From Bispira polyomma (lineage: Eukaryota), in the NCBI GenBank assembly GCA_965649765.1, contig OZ287759.1, forward strand, positions 34,038,001 through 34,102,000: a DNA stretch of 64,000 bases. The letters are read 5' to 3'. The notes under the pieces are model-generated. The model worked only from the letters and a program-made list of their open reading frames with translations, ran no database searches and was not told the DNA's origin. Of the stretch, positions 1 through 43,039 are shown in pieces. Made by a program: the position numbers and the translations under genes. Position 1 is the stretch's first letter, and every line of letters begins with the position of its first letter.

Positions 1-210
1 TTCAGGAATGATGATACTTCTACTGATGATATACCACAAACTTTAGAGAGGGTCAGTAATACTGAATGGTGAGATTTGTTTTGCAATTTAGAAATACTTG
101 ACATTTATTAACATTAGACTTACAGTAATTGTACATTGGCTATACATATAGATTTATATATAAATCACAATCTATTCATTTGATTACCAGTGATTCTGTC
201 ATTAGATTAT

Positions 211-1160
211 TGTTGTAGCCCCGGAATTTCCTGGGATATACGGAGCTCTGAGAATAAGTAGTGCCCCAAACTCCCGCGACGGGGAAATAAGCGGCTGTGG
301 CGGATGAGGACGTGGCCGGTGTACAAGATCATTACAAACAGTAAGTTATAAATTGTCTTTATGTGTTTATGTGTATTTATAAAGTGAACCTGTATATTAT
401 TGTATTCGTTGTTTGAAAATACAACATTATGAAGTTAATTTAGTGTTTAAGTATATGCTTTATTAAAGATAAATACAGGGTAATTCCAGAAGAAAAAATA
501 ACATTTAGAAGGAACTATTTTTCGAAAATGTGTACATTCTGAAAATGCAGACGAGGTAAATTGCCTTTGTCTAATGTCCTTTGGGTGAGTAACTATGGAA
601 AATAAATAAATGTATTATTATTCATAAATGTCACTATAATAACCATCCAGAAAGTACTGTATTGCCATTAAAAGCTAGTATCTTATAGAATGTAATTATA
701 TACTGTGGGAAAGCTGTTAGTGAAAATTATAGGAAAACTTTAATAATTAATTCAAGCAACTATGAAATTTGTCCACTCACATCGAATACACATTTACAAC
801 TTGAAAAAAAGAACAAAACAAAAAACCAACTAGGAACAAGAAAGACTTGGAAGTAGAATTTATATAGATATTTGATTGTGAACTAGATCCCCGGTTCGGT
901 ACCATAATGTTATTTTATATGTACTGCGTATTATGTGATTGATTGACCGTGATTATATATTATTTTGTTGCAATGTGTGCTATATGTTAACTAGTATTGC
1001 CCGAATTATTGTAAAGTAAAATAATTCAGTGAAACTTTAGAAAAGACGTAGATCTGAGAGTGATTTGTATGATGTGGAAAGTGGTGATCTGAATCAAATG
1101 GAAGGTAAGTTATGGGATAAGTTAATTGAGATCAGAGGTATTGGTCCAGAGTGAGCTACA
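211..1160 (+). repeat. LTR (probable solo LTR of a related Gypsy subfamily) flanked by 5-bp ATTAT duplication
   Basis: Starts TGTTGTAGC, ends GCTACA. ATTAT lies at 206-210 and 1161-1165. First ~268 nt align to the 3' LTR (8998-9265). No TGG-type PBS after 1160. Confidence 0.75.
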
Positions 1161-1165
1161 ATTAT

Positions 1166-3273
1166 CATAGAGGCAATGAATGCAAATGGAGGTGAGTTAA
1201 CAGAGAGACAATTCTTTCTTTTGCCGAATATTCCTTTGGATGTCAAGGACACAATAGTGTTTGTTAACATTTAAACAACCGTTAGCCATTGGTAGAAAAG
1301 AAGGTGATATTGCTGAGGTTATCACTTTAAGGAAACAAGCTAGTAGCATGATGCTCGCTAATGTTGACAAATCCAGAAACCGTATGGTGGCAATGGATAG
1401 AACAAGTGAAATGAACAGAAATACTGAAACAATTGTTAAAACACTTGACGGAATGGGAGGTTTGGGATCAGTATATCATAGATACCGTGATTCTTCAGTG
1501 ATTAATCAACAGTTGTTGGGTAAAAGGAAGTTACAGGAGCTTAAACATGAGCGGGATCGAATACAAGAAAGATTCAGGTGTAAGCAAGAGAAACTGGAAC
1601 AAGAATCTTGGGTGCGTCGGGATACTTATAGACAGAAATTGCAGAATGATTTATTAAAGCTATTGGAGGACTACAGTGAGGTTTTAATGAGTCACAGAAT
1701 GCCAGGTGATGTAGCAGAGTTTTTCACTACCATGACTGTACCACCACCTGAAGTAACTGGATGTCAGAAAGTACGACACAAAAAATGGTAGTACCACCAA
1801 AGGCACCAGACAGTTTACAATTAGGTGAGTCTACATCTTATAGTGCTCCTGTGACAAGTGTATTTGCTACAACTGCAAGTGTTGCACAGCCATCTGTAAC
1901 ACCGGCACCATTGACCACAAGCACCATAATGTCCACTGTTATGCAAGTGCTACTAGTTTCATTGTCACGTAGTGTAACCGTTACCGCAGGCACAGCATTG
2001 TCCGCTACTTCTTTACTGCTACCTACTTCAATGACAGCTAGTACACCAACACCAGTGGCGACAGCAAGTGCATTTGTACCACTTCCACCAAGAAGGGAAG
2101 TAGAAATGCCATGGCTAAAGGTATCGAGCTTTGAGGGAGTAGCTTGGAAAGCTTTTATTCAGCAGTTTAAATTGTTGGCCATACAGTACAAGTGGACAGA
2201 TGAAGAAAAGATCCAGCGATTGTTTGTTTTATTGCGCAGTAAGACAACACAAACCAACTACACAGAAATCAAAAACAGGTTCACAGCTAAGTTTGACAAG
2301 AAAGATCTACCAAGAACTGCACAGAACCAGCTACTTAGTATCAGACAGAATTTAGATGAAGATCTAGAAGATTTTTCGGAGAGTACAGAAGCTTGTGTTG
2401 CGTGGTTATCCTGAGACCGCAATGGTTAATACAGAACTGTTTGCCATTGAATACTTTTTGAAGGGATGCAAGGACAAGCAAGCTGCATTCCAGATATTGC
2501 ATACTCGACCACAGACCTTGGGAGAAGCCTTGATCCGAGTGAAAGATTCTGTACAACATAAACAGACCATTTATGGAGAAAGGGTTGTCAAGGACTTGCA
2601 ACAGGTTTCAATGAATCCTAGTGATGCAGAAAAGATCTGATGGTCAGGAACTTGTTCGCAGAAATCAAATAACAATCCCGCGTTGAAGTTGTTAAAACCA
2701 ATTACAGTCGAACTTAACAATAGTTGAACTTAACAAACATCAGAGTCAGAAATCTTCAGATAGGGGACATTCTGATAGAAACAGTCAAGGTTGTGCAGAA
2801 AGAACTTATGTTATAACTGTGGGAACGAAGGACACTTAAAAGCAAACTGCCCATCAGCAAGTAGAAATTCTGTTGGTAAGTGCTTCAATTGTGGGAATAC
2901 TGGGCACATCAAGGTGAATTGTTCATCACCAAGGAATTCACCAGGTAGGTTGTTACAGTGTTTTGGTTGTGGGAAAATTGGTCATTTGCATAGAGATTGT
3001 AGACAGTCACCAAGGCATTATGGATCCGGATCCGGACGCTTTTTTCCTAGAGGTAGGTACTCACCAAACAAGTATGGACGAGAATCTAGTTATGATTATA
3101 GATCAGGTAGAAGCCCGTGTTCTAGTGATGGTGATGATAGGAGAAATAGGTCAGGGTCATGCACTTCCACAAATGACAACCACTTTGACAGGTATGTTTC
3201 TCCTGTGAGGAGAGGAAGTGAAGGTTATAAAAGTCCACTACGTGTAGATAGATTGTCAAATAGTCCAGTTTAA
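1166..3273 (+). pseudogene. gag: Gypsy gag (frameshifted): coiled-coil, S/T-rich linker, capsid-like region and three CCHC zinc knuckles
   Basis: ORFs 1261-1791, 1761-2414, 2395-2640, 2791-3273. Knuckles CYNCGNEGHLKANC, CFNCGNTGHIKVNC, CFGCGKIGHLHRDC, followed by an RS-rich tail. Confidence 0.88.
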
Positions 3274-3499
3274 AGTTAGTCGCGTGTGTTTAGCGAAGAA
3301 AGTTGTTTTGCAACTGTGTTCAGTTACAATTATGTGTGCAACTACTGACTTGAATAGTCCTGGTAGTACTTTTGTGTTGCTCTTTTTTGGAGTTGCTTGT
3401 GAAGTAGATTCTATATTTGAAGACACTTCATGTGACATTGACAATGACAACCCAACTTTAACTACTAGCAAAATTCCACAAGTAAGACAAACAATGCTA

Positions 3500-6244
3500 G
3501 GAAAATCAAAATTTCCACCACATCTAGTGGATTTATACAAAAACTCGTACTAATTTAAACCATGAGCAACAGTGTAAATTGAAACATTTACTTAGTGATT
3601 ATTCTGATGTGTTTGCCAACATGAGTTTGAGTGTTTTAAGGAGATATTACACCAAATTGATACCGTTGACGTGAAACCAGTTAGGCAACAGATGAGACGA
3701 GCTCCAATCGGTTTTGAGCGGGAAGAGAAGACTTGTGTTCAAAACATAATTAAGTCTGGAGTTAAACAAGAGTCTTGTTCTGAGTGGGCATCGCCACCAG
3801 TGTTAATACGGAAAAAGGATGGCTCAGTTAGATATGCAATTGACTACAGGAAATTGAATTTTTTAACTGTAACCGCCATTATAACCCGGCTTGGTTTATT
3901 TGAGCATGTACGAATGGGTTTTGGTTTGTGCAATGCACCAGCAACATTTCGGAGGATTATACAGCTGGTATTGCGAGGTTTGACCTGGAATCATGTACTT
4001 TGTTATATAGATGACGTTGTAGTTTTAGGCAAAGACTTTGAGGACCATTTACAGAACCTTGTCGCTACTCTAGACCGTTTTCAGAAATATGACCTCCGGT
4101 TGAAGCCCAGAAAATGCATTTTGTTCCAAAAACAGGTTAAGTTCTTGGGAAAAATGGTGAATAGTAAGGGAATATCAGTGAATCCTGAAAGCATAGAAGA
4201 AATACAAAAATGGCCAACGCCAGTTAACCGGAAGGAAGTTGAACAGTTTCTAGAATTTGTAAACTACCATCGTGAACACTGAAAAAGATTTCGCTGAAAC
4301 AGCGCATTGCTTATACCAACTGACAGGTAGTAAGGTCAATTCCACAAATTTCCGTTGGTTGGAAGAGCATGGTAAGGCATTTCACAAGTTAAAGGAGCAA
4401 TTGACATTGGCACCTTTATTGACATATCCTAATAACCATGATTTGTTTGTGTTAGACACTGATGCTTCTGATGGAGCCATTGGAGCAGAATTGCTTCAAA
4501 TACAGGATGGACAGGAAAAAGTGATCAGTCACAGAAGTTAAATTTTATCTCCTGAGAAAAAGAAATATTGTACTACTCGTAAGGAACTTTTGGCTATAGT
4601 AAAATTTACTAGTCACTGCAGACATTTTTTGTTGGGTCAAAAAATTGTAGTTCGGACTGACCATAGCAGTTTGGCAAGGTTGATGCGATTTAAATATATA
4701 GAGGGTCAATTAGCCAGATGGCTTGAGGAGCTTGGTCAATGTGATATGACTATTATTCATCGGGCAGGTGTAAAACATGCCAATGCGGATGGACTATTTC
4801 GAATACCGGATAGAACAAAGATATGTAATTGTTATGTAGCAGGGGTAGAACCGACGGAATTGCCTTCTGGTGGTTGTTCTTATTGTGTGAGAGCACAGAA
4901 ACAATGGGGACAGTTTAATGACGTAGATGATGTAGTTCCCTTAGCTATGAAAACTGACCCCTTGACTATTAGTAGATCAGAGATAGAACCCTGGTTTCCA
5001 GGATTGTCTAAGGATGAGATTAGATCTGCTCAAGAAAATGACAATTGAGTTATCACATGACATTCCAAGTTCAGGACATTTGGGAATGAATAAGACGTTG
5101 GACAAACTGAAACAAAATTTTGTTTGGTACAAAATAAATATTACTGTCAGAATTTTATTAGGACTTGTAGACAATGTAACATGAATAAAAAACTGTCCAA
5201 AAAACCTAACACTTCCTTGGAATTGTTTCATGCGGGAACACTGATAGGGCGTGTTCATGTTGACATGTTGGGACCGTTTATTCCAAGTGATCAAGGTAAT
5301 GTTTACATTCTGATGATAGTAGATCAGTTTACAAAGTGGCTTGAATGCTTCCCTGTTCCAGATGAAACTGCATAAACTGTTTCTAAGACAATTGTAGATA
5401 ATTTTATTGCTAGATTTGGTTGCCCATTGCAGGTTCACACTGATCAGGGACATAACTTTGACGAAAATCTGTTCCAACAGGTTTGTAAACTATTGCAAAT
5501 CACCAAGACTAGGACTACTCTGTATAGACCTAGTTCTAATGGACAAGTTAAGAGATATAATAAAACGCTTTTGAAAATAATGAGGTGTTACATTGAAGAT
5601 AATCAAAAAGTGTGGGACCAGGATTTGCAATTACTTGCAGGTGCCATTAGGGCTACCAAGAATAGACATACAGGTTATTCAGCTAACATGATGATGCGAG
5701 GTAAGGAGACTTCACAACTGGTAGATCTCATGCTAGGAGTAACAGATCAGAATCTTAGACAGCAAAATCCAGCTGAATATGTGCAACAATTACAGCAAAA
5801 GTTACAAAGTGTGCATACTTTTGCTAGAGACAATCTAAAGACCAGACTTTCATGACAAAAGAGGTCTATATTTAGCGACTAAGGTGCTTTCACCTATTTT
5901 GTAACGAATACCTGGGTAAAAAATCTGAATTGGTAGTGCATCATGATAGACTCAAAAATTGTGAGGATAGGTCAATACCCTTGTGGATTAGGAGAACGAG
6001 ACATCAGTTATTAGAAACCGAGGATGAGGAATTACTTGAGGATTTGAGTGAGGATTCAGGGTTACATTTAGACATTTTGTTTGGGGATGATAGTGAGGAA
6101 ATACCTGAAATTACTGACAATAGTGAATCTTTATTTGACACACCTGAGTTAGACCTTGATGAAGGTGTCTACTACAACTCTTGCGCCAGTGGTAGCTTCT
6201 TCCTATTTGATGACCTTTGTGTCCACTGGTGTCGTACAGACTAG
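3500..6244 (+). pseudogene. pol: Gypsy pol (RT, RNase H, integrase), disrupted; no protease motif recognisable
   Basis: WASPPVLIRKKDGSVRYAIDYRKLN, MGFGLCNAPATF and YIDD (RT). LDTDASDGAIGAEL and RTDHSSL (RNase H). VHVDMLGP, VDQFTKWLE, VHTDQG, SSNGQVKRYN (integrase core). VVHHDRLK C-terminus. Confidence 0.95.
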
Positions 6245-6575
6245 TTGTTTGCAGAGTTGTACTTCAACTACAGACAGTATAATTTTTCCCATACTTGCGA
6301 CCCCTAGGATCTCCACAGAAAGTTAGGGTGAGGATTTAGGTGGAGTAGAACAGAAACAACAGCATTTGAAGGTAACCTTGGACAGTACGGGTACTCCTGA
6401 TGATAGTGTGGCATTCAAGCAGGGGGATGAATAAGACAATCCAAGGGTGCAGGCTGCATTGGTGATTCACCAGAATGAGTATGCAGACGAAGAGCGAAGA
6501 TATGCGTGTTATGTGGATAAGTTATGACAATATGAGTCGGGTTATAGAGGAGAGGATCCGTTTTTGTCTGTTGAT

Positions 6576-7965
6576 ATGGAAAGGCAACCACCAGAGAAGA
6601 GGGCGAGAATAGTGTTTTCACAGGTACAGGGTGCAGTGATGCATACTGTAGCAAGAAACTTAACTCCCAGAAAAGAATGCATCGCGAAGGGGTGCACATT
6701 AGTAACAAAGAAGATGCGCATACACATAGAAAATGCTCATTTGCCAGCGTTCTCTGCTAGAGAATGCTTGGACATGAAGTTAATTTATAACTATCTTTTG
6801 AGGTTGTCTGGACATTTGAATGTAGAAGGAATAGAAGGTTTATTGAAATATTGTCGAGATTCGAGAGTATACCCGTCGCAGGAAACCACAATGTTCATCA
6901 CACCTTGGGATGAGAAGTTAGCGAGCGATTTCATGGACTTTTTGCATGAGGAACAACCCAGATGTAGGATTACCATTTCACCACCAAATTGTGCGGGAAG
7001 TCTTATTGGTGCATGGTGATTTCTATTATGATTTCTGTGGAGATTATAAGATTGGCTAGTGATTCTTTCGCATCAACGCTGGGTTCATCTCCTCATGGGG
7101 AGATGATTGATAGTCATGCTCATGTGTCGGATTGGCTTGATTGGTATGCGCTTTGCCAGACTGGCTTCAGGGATTTTGGACAGGTAATGAAGTTGACGAA
7201 ACCAACCCGTTTGAAGTATGTGAAGATGGCTGCTTTGATGAATGTGTACTGTTTTCCGGATAAGGTGGAGAACAGTTCACTTGTTTTCCAAAATTTCGGA
7301 GTACATCCGAAAGCGTGCAACAAGTACAGTCAAGAAGCTTTAAATGCTGTTAATGCAGCTAGTCGGTATCCATTATGTGTTGCTATTGGAGAAGTTGGCT
7401 TGAATTACTCTAGCAAAAACCACAATAGAAAAAGTCAAAAGGACATGTTGAAGGAACAGTTGTTATTGCAAACAAGTGTTGTTTGTCTGTGGTGATTTAT
7501 TGTCGGGATAGAGCGTGCCGTAGTGAGGCTTACAACGATTGCCTTCAGATTTTGTCTGAGAGTTTGTCATCTGCACATCCCACTTATCTGCATTGTTTCA
7601 CGGCGGGAAAACAGATTTGTAAGAATTGGTCAGCAAGATTTCCCGCAGTGTACTTCGGTGCTTCACCGAAAATAGTGTATAGAAACACTCATAAAGAGAA
7701 CGATCAAGTATTCCCGGAAGTGTCATTAAAAAAAAATTCTTCTTGAATCGGATGCTCTGTATCAACCTAACCGCGCTGTGGACGCTGACAAGAATACTTC
7801 ATGGGACATTTCTTTGTTGGGGAGAAATTGGCCGAAATTAGAAACATTTCAGTGCAGGCAGTGATACGGACCACTCGTTTTAATGCTGAGGCATTTTTTA
7901 AATTGGCAGGGAAATTGAAACAGACAATGGTGTTAGTAGATTCCCTTTTAAAGGGAATGGGGTGA
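6576..7965 (+). pseudogene. Extra LTR-element ORF: C2H2-like zinc-finger domain fused to TatD-family metal-dependent nuclease (frameshifted)
   Basis: Across the frames: CIAKGC-x9-HIENAH; MIDSHAH; FGVHPK; VAIGEVGLNY; VVIYCRD; YLHCFT; ILLESDA; then LAEIRNISVQAVIRTTRFNAEAFF, stop at 7963-7965. This is the ordered TatD motif set. Confidence 0.88.
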
Positions 7966-8235
7966 AGACTGTTTAGTACATTTGTTGTAGTGTTGTTTTC
8001 ACCTTATGGGTGAGTGTATGGGTTAGTTGTTATTACGCTGTTCCTACCTATCTTGTAACTACCTTTTTACTACCTTGTTTCTACCTTGTTGAATCCTCTG
8101 TTATTCGCTTTTAAAGGTGAATTGGGAAAATAAAAATGAACATAATTTGACTGAATATGGGTATTTCACCTCTGAGGTGAAATTTAATAATATGCTTTGT
8201 GTGCATTCAGACAAAGGACAGTCCATGAAGGTGTG

Positions 8236-8369
8236 GGTGTCCGTTGGTGGGCAGAAATTCAAGGCCCCTTCTATCATGAGACAAGTCTGTTTCTGTTGGC
8301 TTGGTGTCCGTTGGTGGGCAGAAATTCAAAGCCCCTCATATCACGAGACAAATCTGTTTCTGTTGGCTT
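8236..8369 (+). repeat. Tandem duplication of a 67-bp unit in the Gypsy 3' UTR
   Basis: GGTGTCCGTTGGTGGGCAGAAATTCAA...TTTCTGTTGGCTT at 8236 and 8303, few mismatches. Confidence 0.9.
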
Positions 8370-8997
8370 GTAGGAAACCTCAAACTTCTTCATTGCATTG
8401 CAATGTTCATCTCTCACTCTATTCACCTTTCACTACATTGTCACCGATGCGGCAATACGGGTGAGTGTGGCTGTAAAGCCGTCTCTCAGTTGAGGAGGCC
8501 TGGGAGGGTCCTCCACTGAGGAGCCGGTGTGACCATCGTTGTGCATCACTTTTGAGCTGTGAACTGGACTTGGTTTGCCGGACCACTCTGGAGACGTATC
8601 CCAAAAAGTGTGAAGTTGTTGTGAATTGTGATCATGTGATAAACGAAGAAGTGGAATATGATCATAGTTTTATAATGGAATCAGCTTATAGATGAGTGAT
8701 AAATAGAATTAATAATTAGATCAGTTAATGGCTGAGTGTTAAATGGAACCGAGAGTCTAATCGGCTATTAGCTGAGTGTGGTATCACGGTGATTAGTGAA
8801 ATAGGATACACGGCTGATCACGGGAATATTATCTGGATACATCAGTGATTAGCAGGATGAATTACTAGTGAATGTGTTGCTTCATCTCGTAGTTCTCAGA
8901 AGGATACCACATGCGGGCCATCTCGGTCATACTGTCAGGATATACTACATGTCAATCCACGGTCACGGAAGCTGCCTTTTAAGAAAACGAGGAGGAG

Positions 8998-9373
8998 TGT
9001 TGTAGCCCTGGAAATTCCCAGGATATGCAGAGCTCCGAGAATTAGTAGCACCCCCAACTCCTGCGACGAGTATATAAGCGGATGTGGCTGATGAAGACGT
9101 GGCCAGTGTACAAGATCATTTCAAACAGTGAGTTATATATTGTCTTTATGTGTTTATGTGTATTTATAAAGTGAACCTGTATATTATTGTATTCGTTGTT
9201 TGAAAATACAACATTATGAAGTTAATTTAGTGTTTAAGTATATGCTTTATTAAAGATAAATACAGATTCGTTTTGTCCTGGGAGAGTATGTGTAATAAAA
9301 ACAAGCACATTAATTTCTTGAGTAACTGTGCTTTTTGACAAATCATATGTACTATGAAAATGGGGAGCTTACA
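8998..9373 (+). repeat. 3' LTR of the Gypsy element
   Basis: Follows the PPT directly. Begins TGTTGTAGCC, is homologous to 211-478, contains AATAAA near 9295 and probably ends GAGCTTACA (end position less certain). Confidence 0.8.
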
Positions 9374-11292
9374 ACTATTTGATAACCTAGGACTGTCTTA
9401 CATATATACAACACCTTTATCAGTGGATAAGTATTAAGCAAGAGAATGCTCTGTATTTATAGGTGGTATTCAAGTGCAAGTCTAACTGTTTTAATACAAC
9501 AAAGTGGTGTCCTATATATATCATATTTAAATGCAGCTATAAATAGATTTAATCTTGCTAAATGAGCTCTTTTTTACCTCCCGACGTAAATGTGGAAATT
9601 GTGCTTTCATGTTGACTGCCATCGAGTCTGTAGGTTGTAAGGAGGTAGAGGGAGTTATGGTTAAATCTGATGAGATAAAAGGATTAAGGTTGTGTGACAA
9701 AATATTCAGGTTTTTAACCTATAACTATGGATACAGGCAGAATTACAAAGCCATGAAGAAACCATGTAAAAATATATATATATACACAGCTTATAAATAG
9801 TTTGTAAGATTGTGCTAACAATACTAAGGAAAATATCAGAGTTCCTGTTCCCTTATGTGTTGTCCGTATTATCAGAGATAAGTTTCCTACACTTGATTTT
9901 ATGAGATGATTTTATTCCACTTGTCTCTTTCACCAATTGGGTGTAACATATATACAAGCAAGAAATGAAATGTTATACATTGACAAGGTAATAGCCAGCC
10001 CTAATGGGCTTATTAGTCACTATTAATCCTATTAAAATGACAGTTTAACAATAACTATACCTAAATTGCTTAAAATTTACTACTAAGTAACACATTTCTG
10101 TTTCTCACATTTACCTAATTTATTATAACTGTTCAAACGATTATTTTCTAAAACAGGAGAGATACACAAGAAATGGATTTCGTCTTTAACACCGGTGTTA
10201 CAAAGTTTACATATTCTTTCATCAACATTTTTTCTATTACTTTCAAGTTTCTATCTGAAGGGGTAAAATTACTATTTTTAAGTGTAGCGCTTCAAGCTTT
10301 TCTTTTATAAGTCCCATATTGATTTCTTGCCCATTATCAAAATACTCAGAACAATTTACTGAATTATGTATATCACACACATGAGACTACCATGTGTCTG
10401 CTGTAAAATTTTTCAAACTCCATTTAAATATGTTTATTGTTACTTCGATCCATTTTACAAATTTTATTCCACAAACGCAAAGTTGATATAAATATCTATA
10501 TTTAGGAAGCAGGCAGCCCATATCGCCTTGGAATGCAAGAACTGGAGCATTTCTGCAAACCAAGATAAAATCTTACTGCTCTATTTTGGACTTTCTCAGT
10601 AAGGTTGTAGTTATTATGTCCCCAGATACTTGAACAATATTCTATTATGGGCAAACACAAGTATTTGTATAAGTTTTATAATTCAGAGCTTTGAAAGTTT
10701 TAAATTTTCCAATTACTATTTTGAGTGCTTTTCCTCCTGCATCAGATAATACCGGTGAATATTCCTGGAGATTTCTTATTTTTGCCTATTAATTTGTTTA
10801 TCCACCACTGTCATTTCAATATATGCGCTTAACAATATATTTGGTGGAGATGAAAATTTGTTCTGGCTTTCTAATTATTTTAAGAGTGAACAAATAGAAC
10901 TGTAGAAATAATCATACTTATTATTTACAGAATCATTGCTATTGTAAACACTGCTAAAATCACTCTTCTATTTATCTAGTACTTCATTGATGGTATGTCG
11001 AGCACGACAACTTTAGGGGTCTGCTGAATCAGTTCACCATCTCAATAAATACCCCTTTTAAAAAGACTATTCTTGTTCACACACATTTTCCTTACACATG
11101 TCCTAATGAACCAATCACTAAATAGGCCACCCTTTATTAGAAATTGTATCCCCACTTTTGGGTGCCATATTGGACCAAGGATTAGAAGGGTCAACAACAA
11201 ATAAAAAAAAAAATTTTTTAACTGTGATACATTTAAAGTTTTATGTTCTTTTAAAACAAGTGATTTTATTAGTGTTTTAATATTTACACAAT

Positions 11293-12400
11293 ATGGGGAA
11301 GACGAAAACACCAGGTAGTGTTTCGTTATCCAAGAAGAAAACGACCTCTAAACGCGGGACAACCAAAGGCACAGATCCAGTAGTTAGGAAACTTACGATC
11401 ACAAAGGAGACAGAAGCACAGACAGCGACGGGTGAGAATGGTATTTCAGACATAATGACTATTTTAAAAAGGCTGGAATCAGCAAATTCTGAAATTAATA
11501 GACGGCTCGATAAGGTGGAATTTAGAGGTGCCTGTAACTCGACCCCATTAACCTCTCCTACACAGCAGGGCGCCAACAATACCATGATAGAACTACGGCC
11601 ACCCATTGCAGACAAACTTCCCCTGATTCCGCCGGGTAATCAGTACGTCCCTCACACGCATACAGACGTCCACGCGGCTCAGGCCATTCAGTACAGGGCC
11701 CCAGTGGCTGCTCTTCACCAAGACTACCAGCGGGATGGCATTATCCCTCGACCGGATGTTTTGAAGACCCTACCTGAGGTTAACGCTGCAGTAAATCAAC
11801 GACTGGCGGCTTATGACGTGCAGCTTAGGACGGACCTGTCGCAAGGTAAGACCTCCCTCAGACACAAATCCGGTCGGTTTAACACCACGGACGTTATTAC
11901 GTCTGATCCACAATCTCAGTGGTCAAACGACCTAGCTTTGATGACCTCTCACTGTCACAGTGGGCTGCCAGGCAGTTATTTAACATTGTACAAGTCTCAG
12001 ATGCCACTACCATGCGGCACATGATGTACCAAATGATTTATACTCTGATGGATTCGGCTTCTCTTCCCTGGCCAGCTGGTAGAGCAGGTTGGGCATTGAA
12101 CATGCAGGAGGTGGAAGAGGGTAGACTGGATTGGTCGAACTCTACACAGTGGGCTCTAAATCGCATGAATACATCGCAGCTGGCTCTGATTAACGGCCAC
12201 GTCGTGCAGGCCCAACAGGCATCACAGGCATCACAAAAACTTGCAGTTTCCAACTTATCATGACATGTCAGGTTTTTGCACAAGGGAGTGGGATCAGGCA
12301 GGTAATACTTTCAATTATACACGCTTGGAAGCCATGCCAGGCTTTCGGTTAGATGTTGTAGAAAGGCAGGAAATCATCATGACCAGTCACAGCTGGAACA
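11293..12400 (+). pseudogene. Element A ORF1 (gag-like), frameshifted
   Basis: Coiled-coil (ILKRLESANSEINRRLDKVE), KSGRF, RPSFDDLSLSQW and EVEEGRLDW blocks shared with ORF1 of elements C, D and E. Confidence 0.75.
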
Positions 12401-30500: not shown

Positions 30501-32472
30501 ATAGGACGTTAGTGAAAATTGTGTATCCAACTGCTAGAAGTACATAAAGTCTTATCTTAGGACTACTCCACTAAATGGGTCCTATGTACGTATATTTATT
30601 TCAAATATAGATGCCTAACTGGGGCCACATGTACTTAAGAGCTCCACAGGAATAGTTCAGTTGTTTCATGGTTATATGGCAAATATTAAAAACACACATA
30701 CATCTATGTAAATACCTAAATCTCTCCACCACACTCGCATTAAATCAAGCAGGGAGCATCAAATACTTCTTTTACTAATACTAAGCATTACCATATTTGA
30801 TGCATTTCTATATCGGTGCAACCAACTTTCATATTAGGTGGACGAAAAAGACTGTTTAATATACTTACAAATACATAATAACAGATTGTGACAGTGCCCT
30901 CTGAATGACCTATGCCTTCATTAAAGGCGAAAGAGTTGTTTGTATTTTGTGTCTAAGTCTAATATTTAATACTTAAGTTTACTTATTAGTATTTCCAAAA
31001 TTGTTAAAAACAAAAGTACTGCAATTATGGCTTGCCAACCATTTTCAATTCCCTTTCTAAAACATTTTTGGTGTCTGAGGCTATATTCATAAAGATTCTT
31101 ATTCTTGGAATGTTCTTTGAAATTTGACTAAGAAATTTCTAAGAAAAATTCTAAGAATAACTGGCATATCGAATTATGGCAACCTTGGCACAGCAGATTT
31201 ATGAAATTTAACCTGAACTGTAAATTTAATCTACAAAACTAGTAAGAAATAGTGTAAATGAAATAATTCTGCAACCAATATTTTCAGCTCCATCGCCTGA
31301 ACTTGAGGTCACTGTTAACAAAAACTAAGAAACATATAGTAAAATATAGTTAATCAATCTACCTGAAGACAGTGATTATCTGATTGTAAAAGTTTTTATG
31401 AAACACTTCAAACATAGACATAAAGTTTAGCCCAGGCTTGAACTATATGTTCTGTCTGAAAAATTCATTCAATTGAACATGTGTTAGCTTTAGTTTTTTC
31501 AAATATGGGCATTAATAAAATATTAAATATTACACCAACACTGGTTTACATTTAATTTTGTTGTGGTAAACTGGTGCTCAAAACAAATATCAAATTAAAG
31601 AGCTCTTATTTTGCTGGTGGTTTTGTAAGAGCAACTCCGGTTACATAGTACACAATGTTGAGTTCTATATGAGCCTGCTTATTATTGCTTTGCATTGAAG
31701 AAACCATTATAGGGGTGTACTGCAGCTTGGTTTAGGAAACATCAGTGTATCTTTATACGGCAGACACCGGGTTACCTCCATATATATTAACTTCGTAAAA
31801 AGCCCAGTAAATTGGTAAGTGAGACTCTCATTAAATATATTAATAACAACAGCTAATTCGGTGAGTCAGACTTCACTTAGCATCAGGCCCTGCCACCCAA
31901 GGAAGATGAAACTCAAGAGATAGGACAATTGAGGTTCACTAGTTTATTATACATACATTCATAACTACCACTACAATTTATTTACACATCCACAGTGCCC
32001 CCCCTTGCTGTGAAGTGACCTTGGAATTGATAAGAGGTGAGTGGGAGTATTAATTTTATTTCTATGTTAAACAACTAAATTATTTACACACTTTAGAGTT
32101 AAGCATTTACTAAGTTTAATTAAAGGCCACCCTAAGGCCAAGCTTAGTTAAGTTTAAGTAAGCCCTAAGTGGGCCATAGTTCAAGGTAGCCTTACCGTGG
32201 CTTTAAGGCAGGGAAAAGGTAAGCTTGGCCTAACCTAGTTTAAGGCTAGGTAGAGTTTAAGGTTAGCATTACCAGTTTAAGGTAGCCTTAACCTGAGTTT
32301 AAAGTTAAGGGAAGAATTTGAGTTGAGGTCACCTTAACCTTGGGTTTAAGGCTAGGTGATTTATGATTTAAGGAGCTTAGGGTGACCTTAAACTAAATAC
32401 AATATGAGAATGTTTACATTATGACTATTTACATATAGATTAGATATTACAAAATAGAGCACCAAAGCCCAA

Positions 32473-33432
32473 TTAGGAAGTAGGAGTTGTGAGAAGGGTT
32501 TGAAAGGAGAGGGCCACTTTATCGGATGCCTTGTGGTCAGAGGTCACGTAACGCTAAACGCAGTCAGATGTCCATGTTCCATGACTCTGGATGTCCTGCA
32601 AGGGGACATTGTTGTTAAAAGCCATGGTCGCGCCAGAGCAGCGAAAGTCATGGAATGTGATGGGGGATTCATTCAAACCCAATCTGATGAGTATTGTATG
32701 GAGGTTTCTACGCAGTCTTGAGTCTGTGAGCCCAAGAGGCATTTTGCTTGTACTGAAATAAGGGATCATTTTTTGAGCCAGGGGTGATGCCCAGGATGTT
32801 TCTAATAGCTGTCACTGGACATATAGGTGAGTTAAGAAGGGCAGGAACTTTAAGGACCCTGACTGTGTTCTTGGTCTGAAGTGTTTTGGCCCATTTGATG
32901 ATAATGTGGAGACCAGGAGGAGCAAAAAGCACATCTGCCCTGGCCAGCTGATGAAGGGGAGAGTTAGTAGAGGAGGAGTGAGGTACAAGATTAGAAATCC
33001 TAAGGAAGGCAAAGAATGCCAGGAGATAAGCTCCTTTGAAAACTTGCCCCATATACATTGAGTCACATACCTTACTTATGAGAGTTAAGAGATCAATGTC
33101 AATAATTTTGTGGATTTTTACCTTGAATGGTCTGTGTAATGTGAGGGCTTTACTGAAATATTTAATACGTGGGTCATTAAAAGGTGTAGTGTCTAACCCA
33201 TAGATTGAAAATTTTGCTTTTATGGCTGCCATGTGATTAACAATAGAGGAATGAGACATTTTTCCCACTGCCAAAAATTCCAGGAATGACAAGAGCAGCA
33301 GAGGAGTTGTATCTTGAATTTTTATTTGAATAAGCCAAGAATAGCCTGAACATTGTTGGGTTGTAGGTCTAAATGCCTGATGGACTCTTTTGGCTGCCTG
33401 AGCTGCTAGGAGTGCTGCCAGGGAAGGGAGAC
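32473..33432 (-). pseudogene. Element B tyrosine recombinase (frameshifted)
   Basis: AFLRISNLVP, IKWAKT, ICPV, FHDFRCSGA, SHGTWTSDCV. Begins at acceptor TTTCAG|G. Confidence 0.92.
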
Positions 33433-33444
33433 CTGAAATGTATT

Positions 33445-35907
33445 ATATACGCCAGTAAATGTCCAGTAATTGGTCTGGAACGTTCACCCATTCAGGGTGG
33501 GGTATAATTTATCTTAATTTGTACTCGTTATGAGCTGTCATGTGCCATCTTGATAAGAGATCAGCAGCTTGATTGTTTTTACCTAATATATGGACTGTTC
33601 TTAAATTTATATCGGCGCCCGCCACTTCCATCAGGATGTTGCGCGCAATGGCTGCCAATGTTAGATCTTTAGTCCTGCCTGAGGTGAGGATGGACACCAC
33701 TGCTTGGTTATCGCAGTGGACCATAAGTGTTTTGCCTGCCCAGAGGTGTTTCCACAATCTGACTGCCACCAGGATGTTTAACATCTCAAGGTGGACGATG
33801 GTAAAATTTAGATAGCCCTGAGGGACTTAGTGTACACTAAACTGTTACATTTACCGCCCAGGCCTGTGAGGCATGCATCTAGCTCTATATGATCGGTGAC
33901 TGGGGCATGGTCAAAGAATGCCACCCCATTAAATTTACTGAAAAATTTGTCAAACCATCAGAGGTCCTGAAAGAATTGCACATCTAGTTTAACATTACAT
34001 TCATCACTTATATTGCGTAATATGTCAAGCATACGATTTAAAAATGCCCTGGCTACTCTGAGACATTTAGCCACATACAGTAGTGAACCCAAGAGTGATT
34101 GCACTTCTCTTTTTGTGCATTTGGTCTTACTCAGCCAGGTTTTACACAATTGAATAGTGTCAGCTAATTTCTGGGGAGGGACCTCAATTGTAAATTTCTG
34201 TGTGTCTACTAGCACGCCTAAGCAATTGACCCTATTGGTAGGTGTTACTATCTTTTTCTTGCTGATTTCAAAGCCTAATTCTTGCAAGAGCTTGTACAGG
34301 TTGTCATATGAATTGTGGGTGTCGTCGTACATCCCGTATCCGATGACGTCATCGACATAATTGATGACATCATAGCCGCGTCCGTGCATGACGTAATGCA
34401 CGGCGTCACTGAGGTGTTGAAAAATGGCGCTTCCGTGCCTGTAGCCAAACGGCAGGCACGTATCTATATAGTAGTCGTCCATTTTGAGTCCGAGAAGGTC
34501 ATAATCTGCCGGATCAATCTTTACATGTCGGAATGCCCGACTTATGTCTAGCTTGTATATGAGGGTGCCTTTTCCGAGTTTTGCTACTTTGTCTGTTATG
34601 TGATCGACTGTTGGTAGAGTTAGAAGGAAATCAGTGCCTAGATATTTGCTCTTTTCAATTGCAGCATTGACCGATTTACCTTTTGGAAAACTCAGACCTA
34701 TTATTACCCGACGATGAGCTGCACCAGGCTTCTCCCTAGTCATGAATGGTGAGATATGTAAAGAGGAGATGGGAGGGGTGCTAAATGGCCCCATTATTGC
34801 CCCATGTTCTTTTTCCTCAGCCAAATATGCTCGAACATCATTGGGAAATTCTGTAGCCGACTTGTGATTTTCTTCAACATGGCTGAGTTCCCTTTGTCGG
34901 TCAAAGTCTAAGGGGAAACCATATTTTATCAAATAAATAAGCTGGGTGTCCCAGTAGTTACTAAGTTCACGTTGCCAGACATCCGGATTTAATTCCGATT
35001 TTAGGAGAATTTGTTCACCCATGTAATTTGGCTTACCACTGTTGTGCACTGTGTGGTGGATTTGGAGTGGTGTATCCTTACTGGATTTTTGTTTGTTGAA
35101 AGCAGGCAATGTTAAGTCACCAAGAGGTATAAAACCGAACTTACCGTGTGTTTGCTTATTCCATAGCTTGTAAACAGAGTTACTGCTAGCTTGTGCAATT
35201 GTATCCCTATGTCGGACTTTAACTTGTAACTGCAAGTCATATTTGTCTTCACTACTAGTGAGTGTATTTTGTTCTAAAATACTGTGTCCCCTTGTACTGG
35301 TATCAGTACTTGTGTTTTTTTCAGTGTTCCCCATATTTGGGTCAGTGTTCACCCCATCCCCTCTATGTTCTACCAAGGGTGCAAACCTATTGTGGGAACT
35401 CAGACATTGTTCTGTTGTCTGACCTATTTTGGTTGCATAACTCTTGTTGATGTTTGGTCTGTTTACACGGGGTTTAGTTGGTTTATCAGTCTTACCGTAT
35501 TGCTTGTTGCGGCTGCACTGCAATAGGTGCCTTTTTACATTATTTTGACATACATTATGTACACAATTTTTTGTCAACTGGCTTTCAACCAGGTGACATT
35601 TGTTCACATTATTATTGTACAATACAATGTTAACTTTTTTAGATACATTATTTACAGTTTTACAGTCCAAGTGGCAACTGGAATTAGGCTTTTGACTGAC
35701 CTTATTAATTTTTACAATATCAGCGTATGTTTTGCAATTTACTCTTGCCCAATCCACCTTCCAATTGTCACTTGCTGCAGCTGCAACCACCCCATTGGTT
35801 ATTATCCTGGAGTAAAAATTGGGCACTGCAGACTTACATCTTTCATTGATTGGTTTTTGATGGTTAGACCCGCAGGCCTCACAGTCATATGTCTTCCTAG
35901 GAGCCAT
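33445..35907 (-). pseudogene. Element B RT/RNase H, fused in frame to the ORF1 N-terminal zinc motif
   Basis: MAPRKTYDCEACGSNHQKPINERC joined to the pol N-terminus. IKYGFPL, ISPFMTREK, KLDISRAFR, PFGYRHGS, YVDD, then HCDNQAVV and NQAADLLSR. Confidence 0.9.
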
Positions 35908-37271
35908 AATACACTCTAGGTAGCTATTAGTCACTTTACGGTAATGTTTTATTTGAAGAATGTCTTTTCCACTACTTAATGAATACCCTGTATTCAGCCT
36001 AGATTTTGTTTCACACCTTGGTGTGGATTGTCACAATTGGGAATGTTTGTGGTTTCGTGGTACACCGTGTGTTAACTGTTTTTATATGTAATCACAAACA
36101 ATTGTACATGATTCTCCTGCGCCATGATTTAAATACAGACACCAGTGTAGTTCAATGTTTTCTGTGTAAATTATTGCGCCATCGTGCACTCGATTGCACT
36201 GATATAAATATATAGTCTAGTTAGTTTTACTGAAAATAGAAATATAGCACAATGTGCTTAGATTTCTGCGTATACATGGAATGAGGGTGTGTTTGTAAAT
36301 TTAATGTAAAAATGCTTTAAAATATTAAATTCTAGCAGTTAAGATAACATAAATCACAGTATACAGCCCTCATTCATAGCCCCAACAAGTAGAGCAGTAT
36401 GCGCATAAATCCAAGCATAAGCAGCTTATAACATGTCAGGAACTCCACAGCAGGATCTCCGTGTGATTTAGTCCAAGAAAGCACATAAAATCTCCAGGTA
36501 AATCCTTTGGAAACACAAAATAAAAGTTCCTTAAAATTTGAAATTGTCAATTTGAAATTATTTAACATAAAATGGCGTCTGCCCTTCTGACTTATAAGTT
36601 AAAAAGTGGGATATTCCACACTTTTGGCGGGACATAATTAATTAATTAGTAAAGTGGACCACCCACCAACGAATCAGAACCCAGGTCAGTGGAACAAGAG
36701 TGTTTATCTTATTAAGAATGTAGGACAACAAGAGGGCACTGAATATACTAGCCGCGTGGGCTACCTTCCATTGTTATACACACTTGAATTGATTGTACAC
36801 ATTTATGTTAATACATATAATTTATTTGTAACAACCTTAAACTGATCTTCAAATTAAGGTTGGTATGGTGACCCACTAAGGTCACCTTAACTTAAAACCT
36901 TTTACTGACCTTCAAGTTAAGGTTGGCTTAAGTACCAGCTAAGATTACCTTAACTTAAAACACTTGGAGTTTGAGGGGACCTTAATATTCCCTTTGTTTT
37001 ACATACTTGATACAGTTATTTAATATGAGGTGAAGTTCAGATACGTATAATTCTGAACATATTGAGTATTAAAATACAATTACTGACTATAACAATAGGA
37101 TTATATAACAATAAATTTTCCTTCTATATACTAAAAGTTGTGAATAAAATAACAGAGTAAAACCACATAATATAAGTTGCTAGACTAAAAACATTTTGCA
37201 ACACAATTTGCTACATATATCCTGACGTTTAGACATACTCTGCCTCACACATAGGGAATTGGGAGAGTGGG

Positions 37272-37501
37272 CACATAAATCACAACTGACTCCTTCATTA
37301 AGTCAGTTTGAACTGACTTGTTTATCCCTTATTCTTAAGCAAGAGCCAGTCTTGTCCAATTAGCTTCGTTGTATACCTAGTTACCTAGTGATAGGGGGGG
37401 GGGATTCTAACCCATGTCATAATTAACCAGTTAGCCTGGTCTCCTAAGAATTTAGATTTGCGTTGGAGGCCTGACCCCTGTGATGCCTAGACACCACTGC
37501 C
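37272..37501 (-). repeat. Element C repeat A2
   Basis: Near-identical to 42808-43039. Confidence 0.95.
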
Positions 37502-37503
37502 GA

Positions 37504-37967
37504 CAGGCCCTGCCACCCAAGGAAGATGAAACTCAAGAAATAGGACAATTGAGGTTCACTAGTTTATTATACACACATTCATAACTACCACTACAATTTA
37601 TTTACACTTCCATTGTTATACACACTTGAATTGATTATACACATTTATGTTAATACATATAATTTATTTGTAACAACCTTAAACTGATCTTCAAGTTAAG
37701 GTTGGTATGGTGATCCACTAAGGTCACCTTAACTTAAAACCTTTTACTGACCTTCAAGTTAAGGTTGGCTTAAGTACCAACTAAGATTACCATAACTTTA
37801 AACATTTTGAGTTTAAGGGGACCTTAATGTTCCCTTTGTTCTACATTTACTTGATACAGTTATTTAATATGAGGTGAAGTTCAGATACGTATAATTCTGA
37901 ACATATTGAGTATTAAAATACAATTACTGACTATAACAATAGGATTACATAACAATATATTTTCCCT
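37504..37967 (-). repeat. Element C repeat B1
   Basis: High identity to 36766-37122 plus 31884-31987. Confidence 0.93.
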
Positions 37968-38005
37968 CAAACCCAACAGTAGGGTAGTGTGCATGTATGA
38001 GCCCT

Positions 38006-38979
38006 TTATGATAATATAGCTTGGAAAGAGAGAGCAACCTGCTCCCCGAGTTTTTGATCTGCCTGAATGTAAGTCCACACACAGTCCGACGTCCAGGTGC
38101 CCTGATGCTTAATTTGTTGGATTGGTATGTTTGCATTATAAGCAAACGAGGCACCTGAACGTCGGAAAGTATGGAAAGAGAAGAAATGTGGATCTAATCC
38201 CATTTGTACATTGATTTTTGAGAGGGTTTTTCTGATACGAGAATCAGTCATGACTTGCCACCCTGTGGCCGTCCTATATTGAAATAGTGGCTCATGCTTT
38301 TGAGGGTTATAGAGCTGGAATACCTCATGCAGTGCTTTGTATGGACAGAGTTTTGATTGACCTAGTTTTGGGAGACTAATAATGCTAACTTTATTCCTGT
38401 CCTGCATTGTCTTAGTCCATTTAATGAGTACTTTGACCAGATTTTTTGTGAAGAAGATATCCCCACCTGGTAAGTGCCTAGTGCTGTCAAACGTGTTTAG
38501 AGAATGAGGAGCAAGGTTGAAGACTCTGAAAAACCCGAAAAATGCTGTTAAGAACACAGCTTTGAACACTTTGCCCTGAGGTATTCGCTCACATAGTGAA
38601 ACCAGTGTTTTTAACATTTCTACATCCATTATATATCTTCTAGTTACTGAAACAGGCCTGTTTATCCTAACTGCTTTCACAAAATATTTCACTTTTGGGT
38701 GTTCCAGGCATTTATAGGGTAAATCATACATGATACATTTTGCTTTAATTGCTGAGAGGTGATTACTTATCATGTGAACTGAAACTCCACTTGCTACTAG
38801 ACATTCCAGAAAAGCTAAAACCACTTTAGTTTTGATTTTTGACAATTTAACTTTAGCATATAAACAGAACGAGACAAAGTTCTTGAAAAGCATATTATAA
38901 CATTGCTGTGTCTTTGGTCTGAATGCCTGTTGCAACCTTGCACCTGCTTGACCCGACAGCTTTGCTACCACAGTGTGAT
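38006..38979 (-). CDS. Element C tyrosine recombinase, uninterrupted frame (~325 aa)
   Basis: Catalytic set visible: FFR, IKWTKT, FHTFRRSGA, HQGTW, VWTY. Frame begins at acceptor TTTGTTGTAG|A. Confidence 0.93.
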
Positions 38980-39029
38980 CTACAACAAAGTATAGCACCG
39001 TTAAATATCAGTTTATGTTGATACTGTTA

Positions 39030-41550
39030 TTATAATTCAATATCTAGTTCCAACATTTGTACTGACACATTAAGCCATACTGGCTGTTCTACATACATCA
39101 ACAGTTCTCTGTTATTTTGTACCGTATGTTGCCATCTGGATAGGAGATCAGCAGCTCTGTTTAATTTACCCATCACATACACGTACTGGAGGTCTACATC
39201 TGCCAGTGCTGCCAAATACCACACATTTCTAGCACAGGCCCCTAAAAATGGGTCCCTGGCTCTACCAGATTGCAACACTTTGACTACATCATCATTATCA
39301 CATTTGATAAGTACTTTCTTCCCACTCCAATGCTTATAGAACAATCTCAAAGCAAGTAATATATTGATCATCTTTAAATGGACAACATCTAGATTTTTGT
39401 AACCCCTACATATTGTAAGATGGTATACCATATCCTTCCATCTGCCCCCTAGGCCTACTAGGCATGCATCAAGTTCTAACACAAAATCAGCATTTTTGTG
39501 GTCATAAATGGAGATCCCATTGTACAGTGGCAGAAATTTTGAGAACCATCTCAAGTCTCTAAAGAAATCAGTGGGCAATTGAATTTTCCCCCCATGCTGG
39601 CTTCTTCTCAGAAGTTCCAGCATTCTATTTAGGAAGAAACAAGCTGGTTTGACACATTTGTGGACGTACAGTAGCAGTCCCAAAAGGGACTGCAACTGAC
39701 GTGTAGTACAAGTCGTTGTTATGCCATTCCTTAACCACTTCATTAATTTTGTTAAATTTTTCACCCGGAATTGAGATGGTTCCGTTCTCAGTGTTTATTA
39801 GTACCCCTAAGCATACAGCTTGCGTACTAGGTGGTATAAGTTTTTTGTCACTTATAGTCAAACCTAACTTCTCCAACAAGTTGTGTAGATAGTCATATGA
39901 GTACTTGGCAACCGTGGGCGTGCCGTACCCAATAAAATCATCTATATAGTTGACAACGCTGTATCCACGACAACGCATGACATACCACACGCCATCGCTC
40001 AACTGCTGAAAGATTTGGCTGACATGTCAACTACCAAACGGCTGACACGTGTCGACGTAAGTGCCATTCCAAGACAGGCCAAGTAAGTCGTAGTCACACG
40101 GATCAATTTTGACGTGTCGAAATGCCCGACTTACGTCAATTTTGTATACATGCGCTCCACACCCCAATTTTTTAAGTTCATCTGTGATATAATCTACCGT
40201 TGGGAAGGTCAATGAAAAATCAGTCCCAAGGTAGTTGTTCTTATCAATGCCTGCATTCAGCGTGTTGCCTTCTGGCCAACTCAAATCAATAATGACACGC
40301 CTATTGGCCGAACCTGGTTTGTCTCTGGTCATAAAGGGGGAACAATGCCCTCCTTTTATTGGATGTTTGTCAAAAGAGCCTATTATTGCCCCAAATTTAG
40401 TTTTTTTTCATTTAAATATGTCTCTATGTCCTCTGGGTGTTCAATTGCAGACTTGTGGTTCTCCCCTTTCCACACTAAGTCATTCTCCCTATTAAAGTCC
40501 AGAGAGAAACCATATTCAATCAAATCAATTACTTGTTGATCCCAATAATCTTTTAGAACAAGCTTCCACTGATCTACATTTAATTGGGATTTAACTGGAA
40601 TTCTTGTTTGTTGGAAATTAAACTTTCCACTTTTTTCACTTCATAATGGGCCTTTATGGGATCTGTTACTACCGGGCCTTGAGTTTTTACCTGATTGTTA
40701 TGTAATGGGTCAGACATTGGAACAAAGCCATATCTACAGTCTGTTTGCTCTAACCACAGTCTGTGTGTCAACACCTTATCCAGTATTTGTGTCACGTTCC
40801 TATGTTTGTAAAACAACGAGTGTACAAACTTGTCATCACCACTCTTGTTTATGTCAAACAATTGTTTTTGTCCACCACCCGTTTTCAGTTTGTTTTCACA
40901 TTCAATTAAGTTACTGCTAACTTTTATTTCAATTTGATTTAGGACGCCCACTTGAGCCCTATCCCCACTTTGTTAACTTGTTGACATCTCTTTTGTCCCC
41001 CACTTACAGCCCCCCATAGTATGGGTTGCTATTAATGGGCGAGAGTGGACCACTTGTTTACACAAAGCCATTGTTTCTCTGCTACTACCAATTACCTTTG
41101 TACACACGTTTTGTTTCACCCCGTCCCCAGTGACAGGGCTGTTCTCATTACCAGACCCCCTTTTGACACGACTCCAGTTAATTGTTTGTTTTGGTTTGTT
41201 TCTCTTCCCTTCCCCACGGGACTATGGAAGTACCTCACCCAATTTTCCTTTCTACTAGCCAACAAGGCTTCTACACTTTTTCTTGCTACTTTAGAATTAT
41301 AGAAATTTCTATTCCTGTGTGGCTCGTGTACTTGAGCCATGTTTTGTTTATTAAACCTGTCACTGAAAACGTGCTTTTTATGACCCTGTTCCACACCACA
41401 CTGTGTAGAATAGACTTCAGCAACCTTGCTGTCACACATATAAACATTGTTTACATCATTTACATTAAACAACACACTATTGGCCTCGCCTGGAAATTCA
41501 GTTTCTTTTAGTCTATGTACATAGCTGCTCCCTTTATTTAAGAAAGGTGA
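39030..41550 (-). pseudogene. Element C RT/RNase H (disrupted)
   Basis: MTRDKPGSANRRVIIDLSWP, KIDVSRAFRH, YIDDF, LDACLVGLGG, KCDNDDVV, NRAADLLSR. Confidence 0.92.
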
Positions 41551-41582
41551 GCAGCCTGCTGCTCGTTTTTTGAGTGATATGA

Positions 41583-42474: not shown

Positions 42475-42807
42475 ATTTATTATTGCCTTTGCTTTTATTC
42501 AATTGTTCAGTATCTAGAGATAGAAACATACACAAACACCCAGTACGCTTTTCGATGCAAATCCAAGCTTGATAGCCAATTTGAACTAAATACCCTGCTA
42601 ATTATAATAGGTTAGACCATCCCTTTTTGGAGGCTTTTTCAAGCCAAATCGAGCCTGAGGTTGTCGAAGAGCGTGTCTAGCATACGTGTAGCAGTAATCC
42701 AATATGTTGCACACAAAATGTAAATGTCTGATTAAAACAAACTAAAATATTTATAGATTAAAAGTTGCTTCATATAAAAAGTCATAAAAAACATAAGTGA
42801 ATTCAAA

Positions 42808-43039
42808 CACATAAATCACAACTGACTCCTTCATTAAGTCAGTTTGAACTGACTTGTTTATCCCTTATTCTTAAGCAAGAACCAGTCTTGTCCAATTAGC
42901 TTCGTTGTATACCTAGTTACCTAGTGATAGAGGGGGGGGGGATTCTAACCCATGTCAAAATTAACCAGTTAGCCTGGTCTCCTAAGAATTTAGATTTGGG
43001 TTGGAGGCCTGACCCCTGTGATGCCTAGACACCACTGCC
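42808..43039 (-). repeat. Element C repeat A1 (5' terminus, probable promoter)
   Basis: Matches A2. Ends just after an initiator-like TCAGTT on the minus strand. Confidence 0.9.

Follow-up and report, generated by a model that had tools for sequence, protein, structure and literature searches.

The env message of retroviruses and errantiviruses is spliced. An enzyme-coding third ORF in LTR elements is already known from another fold, that of the DEDDy exonucleases encoded by rotifer retrotransposons (PMC5408684, available portion). As described in the available portions of the respective sources, human TATDN2 degrades the RNA of R-loops and hairpin RNA but hardly cuts a plain RNA:DNA duplex, requires Glu593 and Glu705 and needs its N-terminal region for binding (PMC10711561); medaka tatdn2 is a germ-cell gene that guards germ cells against R-loops (PMC12709183); and the group II HxH TatDs (TATDN3, YcfH and YjjV) are 3'-5' exonucleases and AP-endonucleases that cleave AP sites and the ends of ssDNA (PMC10085689). 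A TatD-encoding retrotransposon is not described in the literature searched (subscription papers and supplements lie outside this scope, and a catalogue entry may exist), and TatD is not mentioned in the available portions of PMC5408684 or PMC13524379.

The locus compared here with these systems lies in a window of 64,000 nucleotides from Bispira polyomma (assembly GCA_965649765.1, contig OZ287759.1, positions 34,038,001 to 34,102,000), in which positions 211-9213 of the plus strand are occupied by a dead, decayed Ty3/Gypsy retrotransposon with direct LTRs of the TG...CA type and the short target site duplication (TSD) TTAT (207..210 and, the same four bases, 9214..9217). The 216-bp 5' LTR (TGTTG...CAACA) spans 211..426 and the 3' LTR 8998..9213, immediately preceded by the polypurine tract (PPT) AAGAAAACGAGGAGGAG at 8981..8997. 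Sibling copies have the same LTR end, AATACAACA, followed by the primer binding site (PBS); siblings and copies of other families alike have a PBS of the TGGTACCA type, which presumably matches tRNA-Leu. The PBS is gone from the window copy: the tract 352..478, where siblings carry TTGGTACCAGAAGT, is an exact copy of 9139-9265, that is, of the 3' LTR end plus 52 bp of the right flank. All 22 mismatches between the two LTRs fall in 211-351 and none after 351; the 5' LTR end and PBS were overwritten by the 3' LTR end and right flank, probably through local gene conversion. With 22 differences in the 141 bp that escaped conversion, the copy is old, and dating based on the whole LTR would underestimate its age because of the conversion. 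An LTR length of 268 bp was rejected: comparison with siblings gives 216 bp, and the longer repeat stems from the duplicated tract 352-478. Full-length copies in the genome are about 10.7-13.2 kb long, with LTR identity up to 98%. The right flanks of the LTRs across copies start mostly with ATAT, CTAT, GTAT or TTAT, which suggests that the element targets xTAT sites with a 4-bp TSD. Elsewhere in the window, a nest of direct repeats spaced by about 5.5 kb (31884-43039) and a separate gag-like ORF (11281-12263) probably represent other retroelements.

Pfam profiles identify on the plus strand, in this order, Retrotrans_gag, three zf-CCHC, RVT_1, RT_RNaseH, rve and TatD_DNase. The broken gag (1098..3273; Retrotrans_gag E 2e-4, zf-CCHC E 1e-16) encodes a helix-hairpin-helix-like start (IRGIGP, 1131-1148), a capsid region and three CCHC knuckles, and the broken pol (3608..6168; RVT_1, RT_RNaseH, rve) encodes reverse transcriptase (RT), RNase H and integrase with its tail, with gaps relative to siblings. 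The protease (PR) region is deleted, and the window copy thus has all but PR of the full order gag, PR, RT, RNase H, integrase that is present in the element L210 described below. The helix-hairpin-helix-like motif (Pfam HHH/HHH_3, below the cut-off) opens the Gag proteins of the clade, namely those of the window copy, L149:2598-5000, L110:996-1496, L210:1743-3680 and P0130.

Downstream of pol, at 6171..7965 of the plus strand, lies the remnant of a third ORF (ORF3), which retains some 598 of roughly 780 codons and, over 6171-7004, shares 85% identity with the open frame in the sibling L034. A comparison with three sibling copies shows that about 0.9-0.96 kb has been lost at the junction at ~6169-6171, and with it the pol end, the intergenic region and some 180-200 codons from the beginning of ORF3. 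The remnant is disrupted by in-frame stops at 6324, 6432 and 6525 and by frame changes near 7004-7017, 7490, 7735 and 7790-7810. The NLS-like basic patch PPEKRAR (6588..6608), which the initial annotation took for the start of the ORF, is internal, as the frame runs on upstream to the deletion junction. It is followed on the same strand by the C2H2 finger and helical module (6678..7060; HLP ... PP-x6-HW), with columns conserved in 76 homologues and a sibling model of pLDDT 92.9, and by an HxH-type TatD domain (7100..7905; Pfam). All the zinc finger and TatD motifs named in that annotation were found in the right order on the plus strand, spread across three frames: C-x4-C-x9-H-x4-H at 6678-6740, DSHAH at 7109, GVHP at 7298, AIGEVGL at 7382, VIYCRD at 7492, LHCFT at 7588, LLESDA at 7739 and TTRFNAEAFF at 7870. 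The domain assignment was likewise borne out, with two unjoined pieces, 6968-7492 (E 5.9e-13, 49.2 bits) and 7429-7743 (E 2.5e-7, 30.8 bits), above the 27-bit Pfam cut-off for TatD_DNase. In this copy, Tyr is found at one of the His ligand positions (7498-7500) and 39 bp are deleted near 7265. The gene had been placed between the integrase tail and the PPT/3' LTR; this position is correct, but adjacency to the PPT is not, as roughly 1 kb separates the PPT from the end of the ORF. A 67-bp tandem duplication (8236-8369) is located within this 1-kb stretch.

A search of the own genome with the window TatD piece yields 41 matches; apart from the window copy, these represent 36 distinct loci, 26 of which have pol upstream on the same strand. 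With the Pfam model, at least 151 TatD matches are found, 150 of the 296 candidates having been scored. Among the best 51 Pfam matches, RT, RNase H or integrase is encoded upstream on the same strand in 46, gag only in 4 and neither in 1. Thus, 50 of the 51 are in a Gypsy context, which agrees with the earlier proposal that the lineage had adopted a TatD gene, as opposed to a one-off processed host copy. The reverse test used the best 81 integrase matches and 4 more at >=47%, of which one (L189) turned out to be an outgroup, leaving 84 near-clade loci; 65 of the sampled loci were matched by coordinates to the TatD match lists and 20 were assessed by examining their sequence. TatD is present downstream on the same strand in 76 of the 84, inverted in one and absent within 6.5 kb in seven. 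Several near-clade loci without TatD are long-branch decayed copies, L170 has a LINE-like ORF in its place, and L172 was scored as lacking TatD because the match there belongs to a neighboring element. At L183, which has a family S integrase, TatD lies downstream on the opposite strand; this arrangement may be an inversion or an antisense copy. None of 20 outgroup Gypsy loci (19 of the 20 originally chosen, plus L189) carries TatD, and a branch with support 100/98 separates the outgroup loci in the tree from the TatD group; L193, picked as an outgroup, groups inside the clade yet has no TatD. When a host TATDN2 protein is used as the query, the 72 matches listed for this genome resemble copies of the element, with long, single frames at ~30% identity, and the host TATDN2 gene was not located among them.

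The same nine families are recovered in quick trees of integrase and TatD from the 30 copies in which both of these regions stay in a single frame; the deep splits are compatible and the patristic distances correlate with r 0.95. In these copies, TatD evolves about 2.9 times faster than integrase. Between families, pS is 0.80-0.90 and pN 0.21-0.43, and dS is too saturated for a between-family dN/dS. Within families, the ratio for TatD is 0.21 among shared variants and 0.58 among private ones (p 1.5e-5); for integrase, the corresponding values are 0.52 and 0.45, which do not favor selection. Given that integrase gave no such signal, this codon test is weak and the between-family result is preferred. 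In 50 single-frame copies picked by high Pfam score, the TatD ligands are nearly invariant: the two His of HxH in 43/44 and 41/44 aligned copies, Glu in 49/50, His in 50/50 at each of two positions, and the last pair, Glu and Asp, in 46/49 and 49/49. The ligands are also kept in the 76 homologues, at about 27% identity. These data show that the TatD ORF has been conserved as a protein over the long term, co-descending with integrase. The agreement of the two trees and the retention of the protein despite saturated synonymous divergence support the conclusion that the lineage adopted the TatD gene as an accessory ORF.

The ORF3 proteins share a layout that consists of a variable low-complexity N-terminus, a basic patch (present ahead of the finger in 5 of 7 intact proteins by a pattern test), a C-x2-4-C-x9-H-x4-H finger followed by LP, a helical module that ends with PP..L.HW, a variable linker and the TatD domain. 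A second CxxC is found in 47 of the 76 homologues. Neither a signal peptide nor a transmembrane segment is detected in any of 7 ORF3 proteins, the maximal 19-residue hydropathy being 1.2-1.4 and the N-termini hydrophilic; TatD_DNase alone is found in ORF3 proteins, and not the motifs of DEDDy exonucleases. The model of an unbroken natural copy, L110 (pLDDT 87.1), adopts a TIM-barrel fold and matches YcfH, TatD, TATDN3 and TATDN1 at Z 30-33, with the best match to Staphylococcus aureus YcfH (Z 33.1, rmsd 2.0 over 251 residues). The finger-helical module of a sibling alone, about 140 residues, is modeled with pLDDT 92.9. It has no Pfam family, no match in the Atlas at 0.9 and no Foldseek match in PDB or BFVD, and its best VIA match is marginal (Z 3.6, rmsd 4.0, 79 aligned residues); this lack of structural matches is no proof of a new fold.

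All 32 element-type TatD domains compared are nearer to host TATDN2 than to bacterial TatD, albeit by small margins (26-30% identity to host TATDN2 and 23-26% to bacteria). The motif HxHC is found in 25/32 element-type, 6/6 host and 0/20 bacterial domains. In one TatD tree, the element domains form a single clade with support 88/86; a second tree does not resolve them as sister to, or nested in, host TATDN2, the bacteria split off at 99, and the module-bearing P0243 falls inside the host TATDN2 group. Both trees left out TATDN1 and TATDN3. Within this comparison, the ORF3 TatD domain is closest to host TATDN2 and is predicted to be a nuclease; the substrate cannot be read from kinship because the identity to host TATDN2 barely exceeds that to bacteria. 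The Glu residues equivalent to those that human TATDN2 needs are kept in the element domains (PMC10711561, available portion).

A profile search of 1.84 billion cluster representatives shows that the finger-helical module is carried by 135 of 150 listed proteins, two of which are the TatD-less ankyrin proteins described below, and by none of 9 host-TATDN2-like proteins or 110 mostly bacterial TatD proteins. Mytilus, Strongylocentrotus and Lingula are the sources of the named members. L210, a contig of 12,187 bp within the record of a bacterial MAG, consists wholly of one intact Gypsy element, with terminal repeats 96.8% alike, a PPT, Gag, a 1,823-aa Pol frame (PR, RT, RH, IN and PHD) and an unbroken TatD ORF; its presence in the MAG is probably due to host contamination. 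The Pol of this element ends in a PHD finger. In P0130, which belongs to the 90% cluster of the sea-urchin protein, an HhH/PNMA-type Gag that is weakly similar to the Gag of the B. polyomma elements (E 7e-6) is joined to the finger-TatD ORF in the gene model. A search for longer fused forms in the 1681-4800 aa range gave four proteins, all host-TATDN2-like. An alignment-based scan of viral contigs gave 40 pattern matches and no relatives, and a metagenome pattern scan gave 22 loci with TatD-type matches in two (L070 and L085), on short contigs that lack pol and are uninformative on context; a further locus, L079, a motif-only match at 15 bits, was left out.

Five sister Gypsy families (L190-L209) have a third ORF with fingers only, a disordered or coiled-coil tail and no TatD (L194:1482-2654, L191:1984-3114, L201:1656-2405, L204:1342-2088 and L207:1674-2336), which suggests that TatD joined an older accessory gene. 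The L194 group shares the H..HLPW..C..C signature, and several of its copies have pol frames near 1,480 aa. Several other associations of these domains are observed. P0187 and P0229, of about 2,950 aa, contain five finger-helical modules alternating with ankyrin repeats and no TatD; these ankyrin proteins were rejected as gag-pol fusions and may reflect domestication of the module or its independent use. A NADAR domain is located N-terminal to the module and TatD in P0019, P0238 and P0287, and also forms the end of an ORF (L199:1695-3095) that lies downstream of an integrase from the outgroup. In the nematode gene model P0024, a Phlebovirus_G2 fragment (precomputed Pfam) is joined to a TATDN2-like domain without the module; this may be a second link between retroelements and TatD or a merged model.

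A pyrimidine tract and YAG lie directly 5' of the ORF3 ATG in seven families (C, C2, D, E, F, G and H), the acceptor-like YAG being 93-124 nt past the pol stop. The pyrimidine-tract rule holds for 6 of 7 ORF3 starts and for 3 of 622 other ATGs, those in gag-pol of the same copies. Family S has ACAG two bases before the ORF3 ATG, families A and B have similar sites ~35 nt before it, and L210 has no YAG directly before its first in-frame ORF3 ATG. The donor-like motif GTRAGT is located 14-21 nt ahead of the LTR end in 5 of 9 groups (C, C2, G, H and S) and deeper in A, and is not seen near the LTR end in B, D and E; in the window, candidate donors identified by motif only are GTAAGT at 341..346 of the plus strand, within the LTR, and GTGAGT at 585-590. 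Three contig sets aligned to family G contained no GT-AG joint, a result that has no bearing on expression. Given that a splice-acceptor-like site precedes the ORF3 ATG, ORF3 is likely to be made from an env-like spliced message.

The reading that we favor, with a probability of roughly 0.45, is that the ORF3 of an old Gypsy clade, with one or two C2H2 fingers and a probably spliced message, encodes a nuclear, finger-guided nuclease that would clear R-loop RNA or structured nascent RNA from copies of the element itself. A TATDN2-like domain would have joined an older third ORF that encoded fingers without TatD, as those of sister families still do; a short exon from the LTR or leader would be spliced onto the ORF3 ATG, as in env; and the protein would act in trans, not as a part of Pol. 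The fingers would guide the TatD nuclease, in the nucleus, to the element's own copies, where the clearing of RNA:DNA hybrids or nascent RNA would sustain transcription of these copies or make them less conspicuous to RNA-guided silencing. A nuclear, targeted role is favored because of the apparently separate message, the basic patch, the fingers and the finger-only sisters. The structure and ancestry of ORF3 are established by the comparisons above; the substrate is inferred. TatD is not required for transposition in general because many sister Gypsy families have spread without it.

An unlikely, although substantial, alternative is a cDNA-maturation or repair enzyme that would trim 3' ends or incise abasic or damaged sites in the cDNA or the integration gap, within particles or the preintegration complex. 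HxH-type TatDs possess the 3'-5' exonuclease and AP-endonuclease activities that this role calls for (PMC10085689, available portion), the L110 model fits S. aureus YcfH (Z 33.1), the clade Gag opens with the helix-hairpin-helix-like motif, and the same role has been suggested for the rotifer DEDDy ORF3s (PMC5408684, available portion). However, ORF3 is separate from pol and apparently spliced, so that the protein would not be packaged automatically; RNase H and integrase remain intact in the elements; and the finger-only ORF3s of the sister families imply a targeting protein, not a replication enzyme.

It is distinctly unlikely that ORF3 destroys cytosolic by-products, such as aborted cDNA and RNA:DNA hybrids, or small guide RNAs, and so averts nucleic-acid sensing or piRNA silencing. 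Genes in host conflict often change fast, and the ~2.9-fold faster change of TatD would be compatible with this role, but any accessory gene is expected to outpace integrase. That hairpin RNA is cleaved by TATDN2 (PMC10711561, available portion) also fits, whereas the C2H2 fingers, together with the basic patch, point to a function in the nucleus. Very improbable is a role in which TatD binds nucleic acid or metal with catalysis dropped and the finger-helical module does the work, e.g., as a regulator of LTR transcription: the five modules in each of the TatD-less ankyrin proteins P0187 and P0229 and the fingers alone in sister ORF3s are compatible with it, but all seven ligand positions persist across families whose synonymous sites are saturated, and in the 76 homologues. 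That a single element family harbors a processed copy of host TATDN2 as a neutral passenger is hardly credible: although the ORF is intronless, nearest to TATDN2 and broken in most copies, this is refuted by the nine families with congruent trees and saturated pS, and the intact element in another genome (L210) and the module, shared by 135 of the best 150 clusters and missing in 9/9 host-like proteins, also speak against it.

The finger-guided nuclease remains the preferred reading. Its fullest form, namely an undescribed Gypsy clade whose age would let it span molluscs, brachiopods and echinoderms, with a finger-guided R-loop RNase of a new fold that is spliced in an env-like manner and would free its own loci from RNA-guided silencing, the clade being one branch of a larger class with finger-type ORF3s, is doubtful. 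LTR retrotransposons would gain a type of third gene, a predicted nuclease from a germ-line genome-maintenance family, kept by selection in many families and, on present evidence, in several phyla, and with it a candidate animal transposon-encoded anti-silencing or cDNA-processing enzyme. The 140-residue module, predicted to be well folded, is without a match among solved structures. Many of the genes annotated as 'tatD' or 'YabD/YcfH-like' in mussel, sea urchin and brachiopod are probably retrotransposon genes, and likewise one in a bacterial MAG.

Compared with known systems, as far as the available portions of the sources describe them, the elements share the Ty3/Gypsy domain order with the mollusc Gypsy clades MolGy1-16, C-clade, AB-clade, CsRN1 and Cigr-1 (PMC6238403); those clades rest on RT/RNase H alone, with ORFs not mentioned in that portion, and the TatD clade may be one of them. 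The likeness to host TATDN2 includes the HxH, Glu, His, His and Glu-x-Asp ligands, HxHC and a long low-complexity N-terminus with a basic patch (PMC10711561, PMC10085689, PMC12709183), whereas ORF3 is intronless, multi-copy and element-borne, has the finger-helical module and is only 26-30% identical. As with the env of errantiviruses and retroviruses (e.g., Drosophila gypsy; PMC13524379), ORF3 follows pol and has an acceptor-like site at its start; unlike env, it lacks a signal peptide and a transmembrane segment and is no fusion protein. Rotifer Juno and Vesta (PMC5408684, available portion) are similar in that an enzyme-coding third ORF with intact catalytic residues and no membrane segment takes the env position, its function being predicted in both cases. 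The rotifer ORF3, however, is a DEDDy 3'-5' exonuclease of the DnaQ-like fold without the C2H2 fingers and helical module, whereas here these are fused to a TatD TIM barrel. At least two separate gains account for the rotifer ORFs, which show no clear departure from neutrality, in contrast to the purifying selection and inheritance with pol in nine families here; and, unlike the elements of bdelloid rotifers, the clade described here appears to span several phyla.
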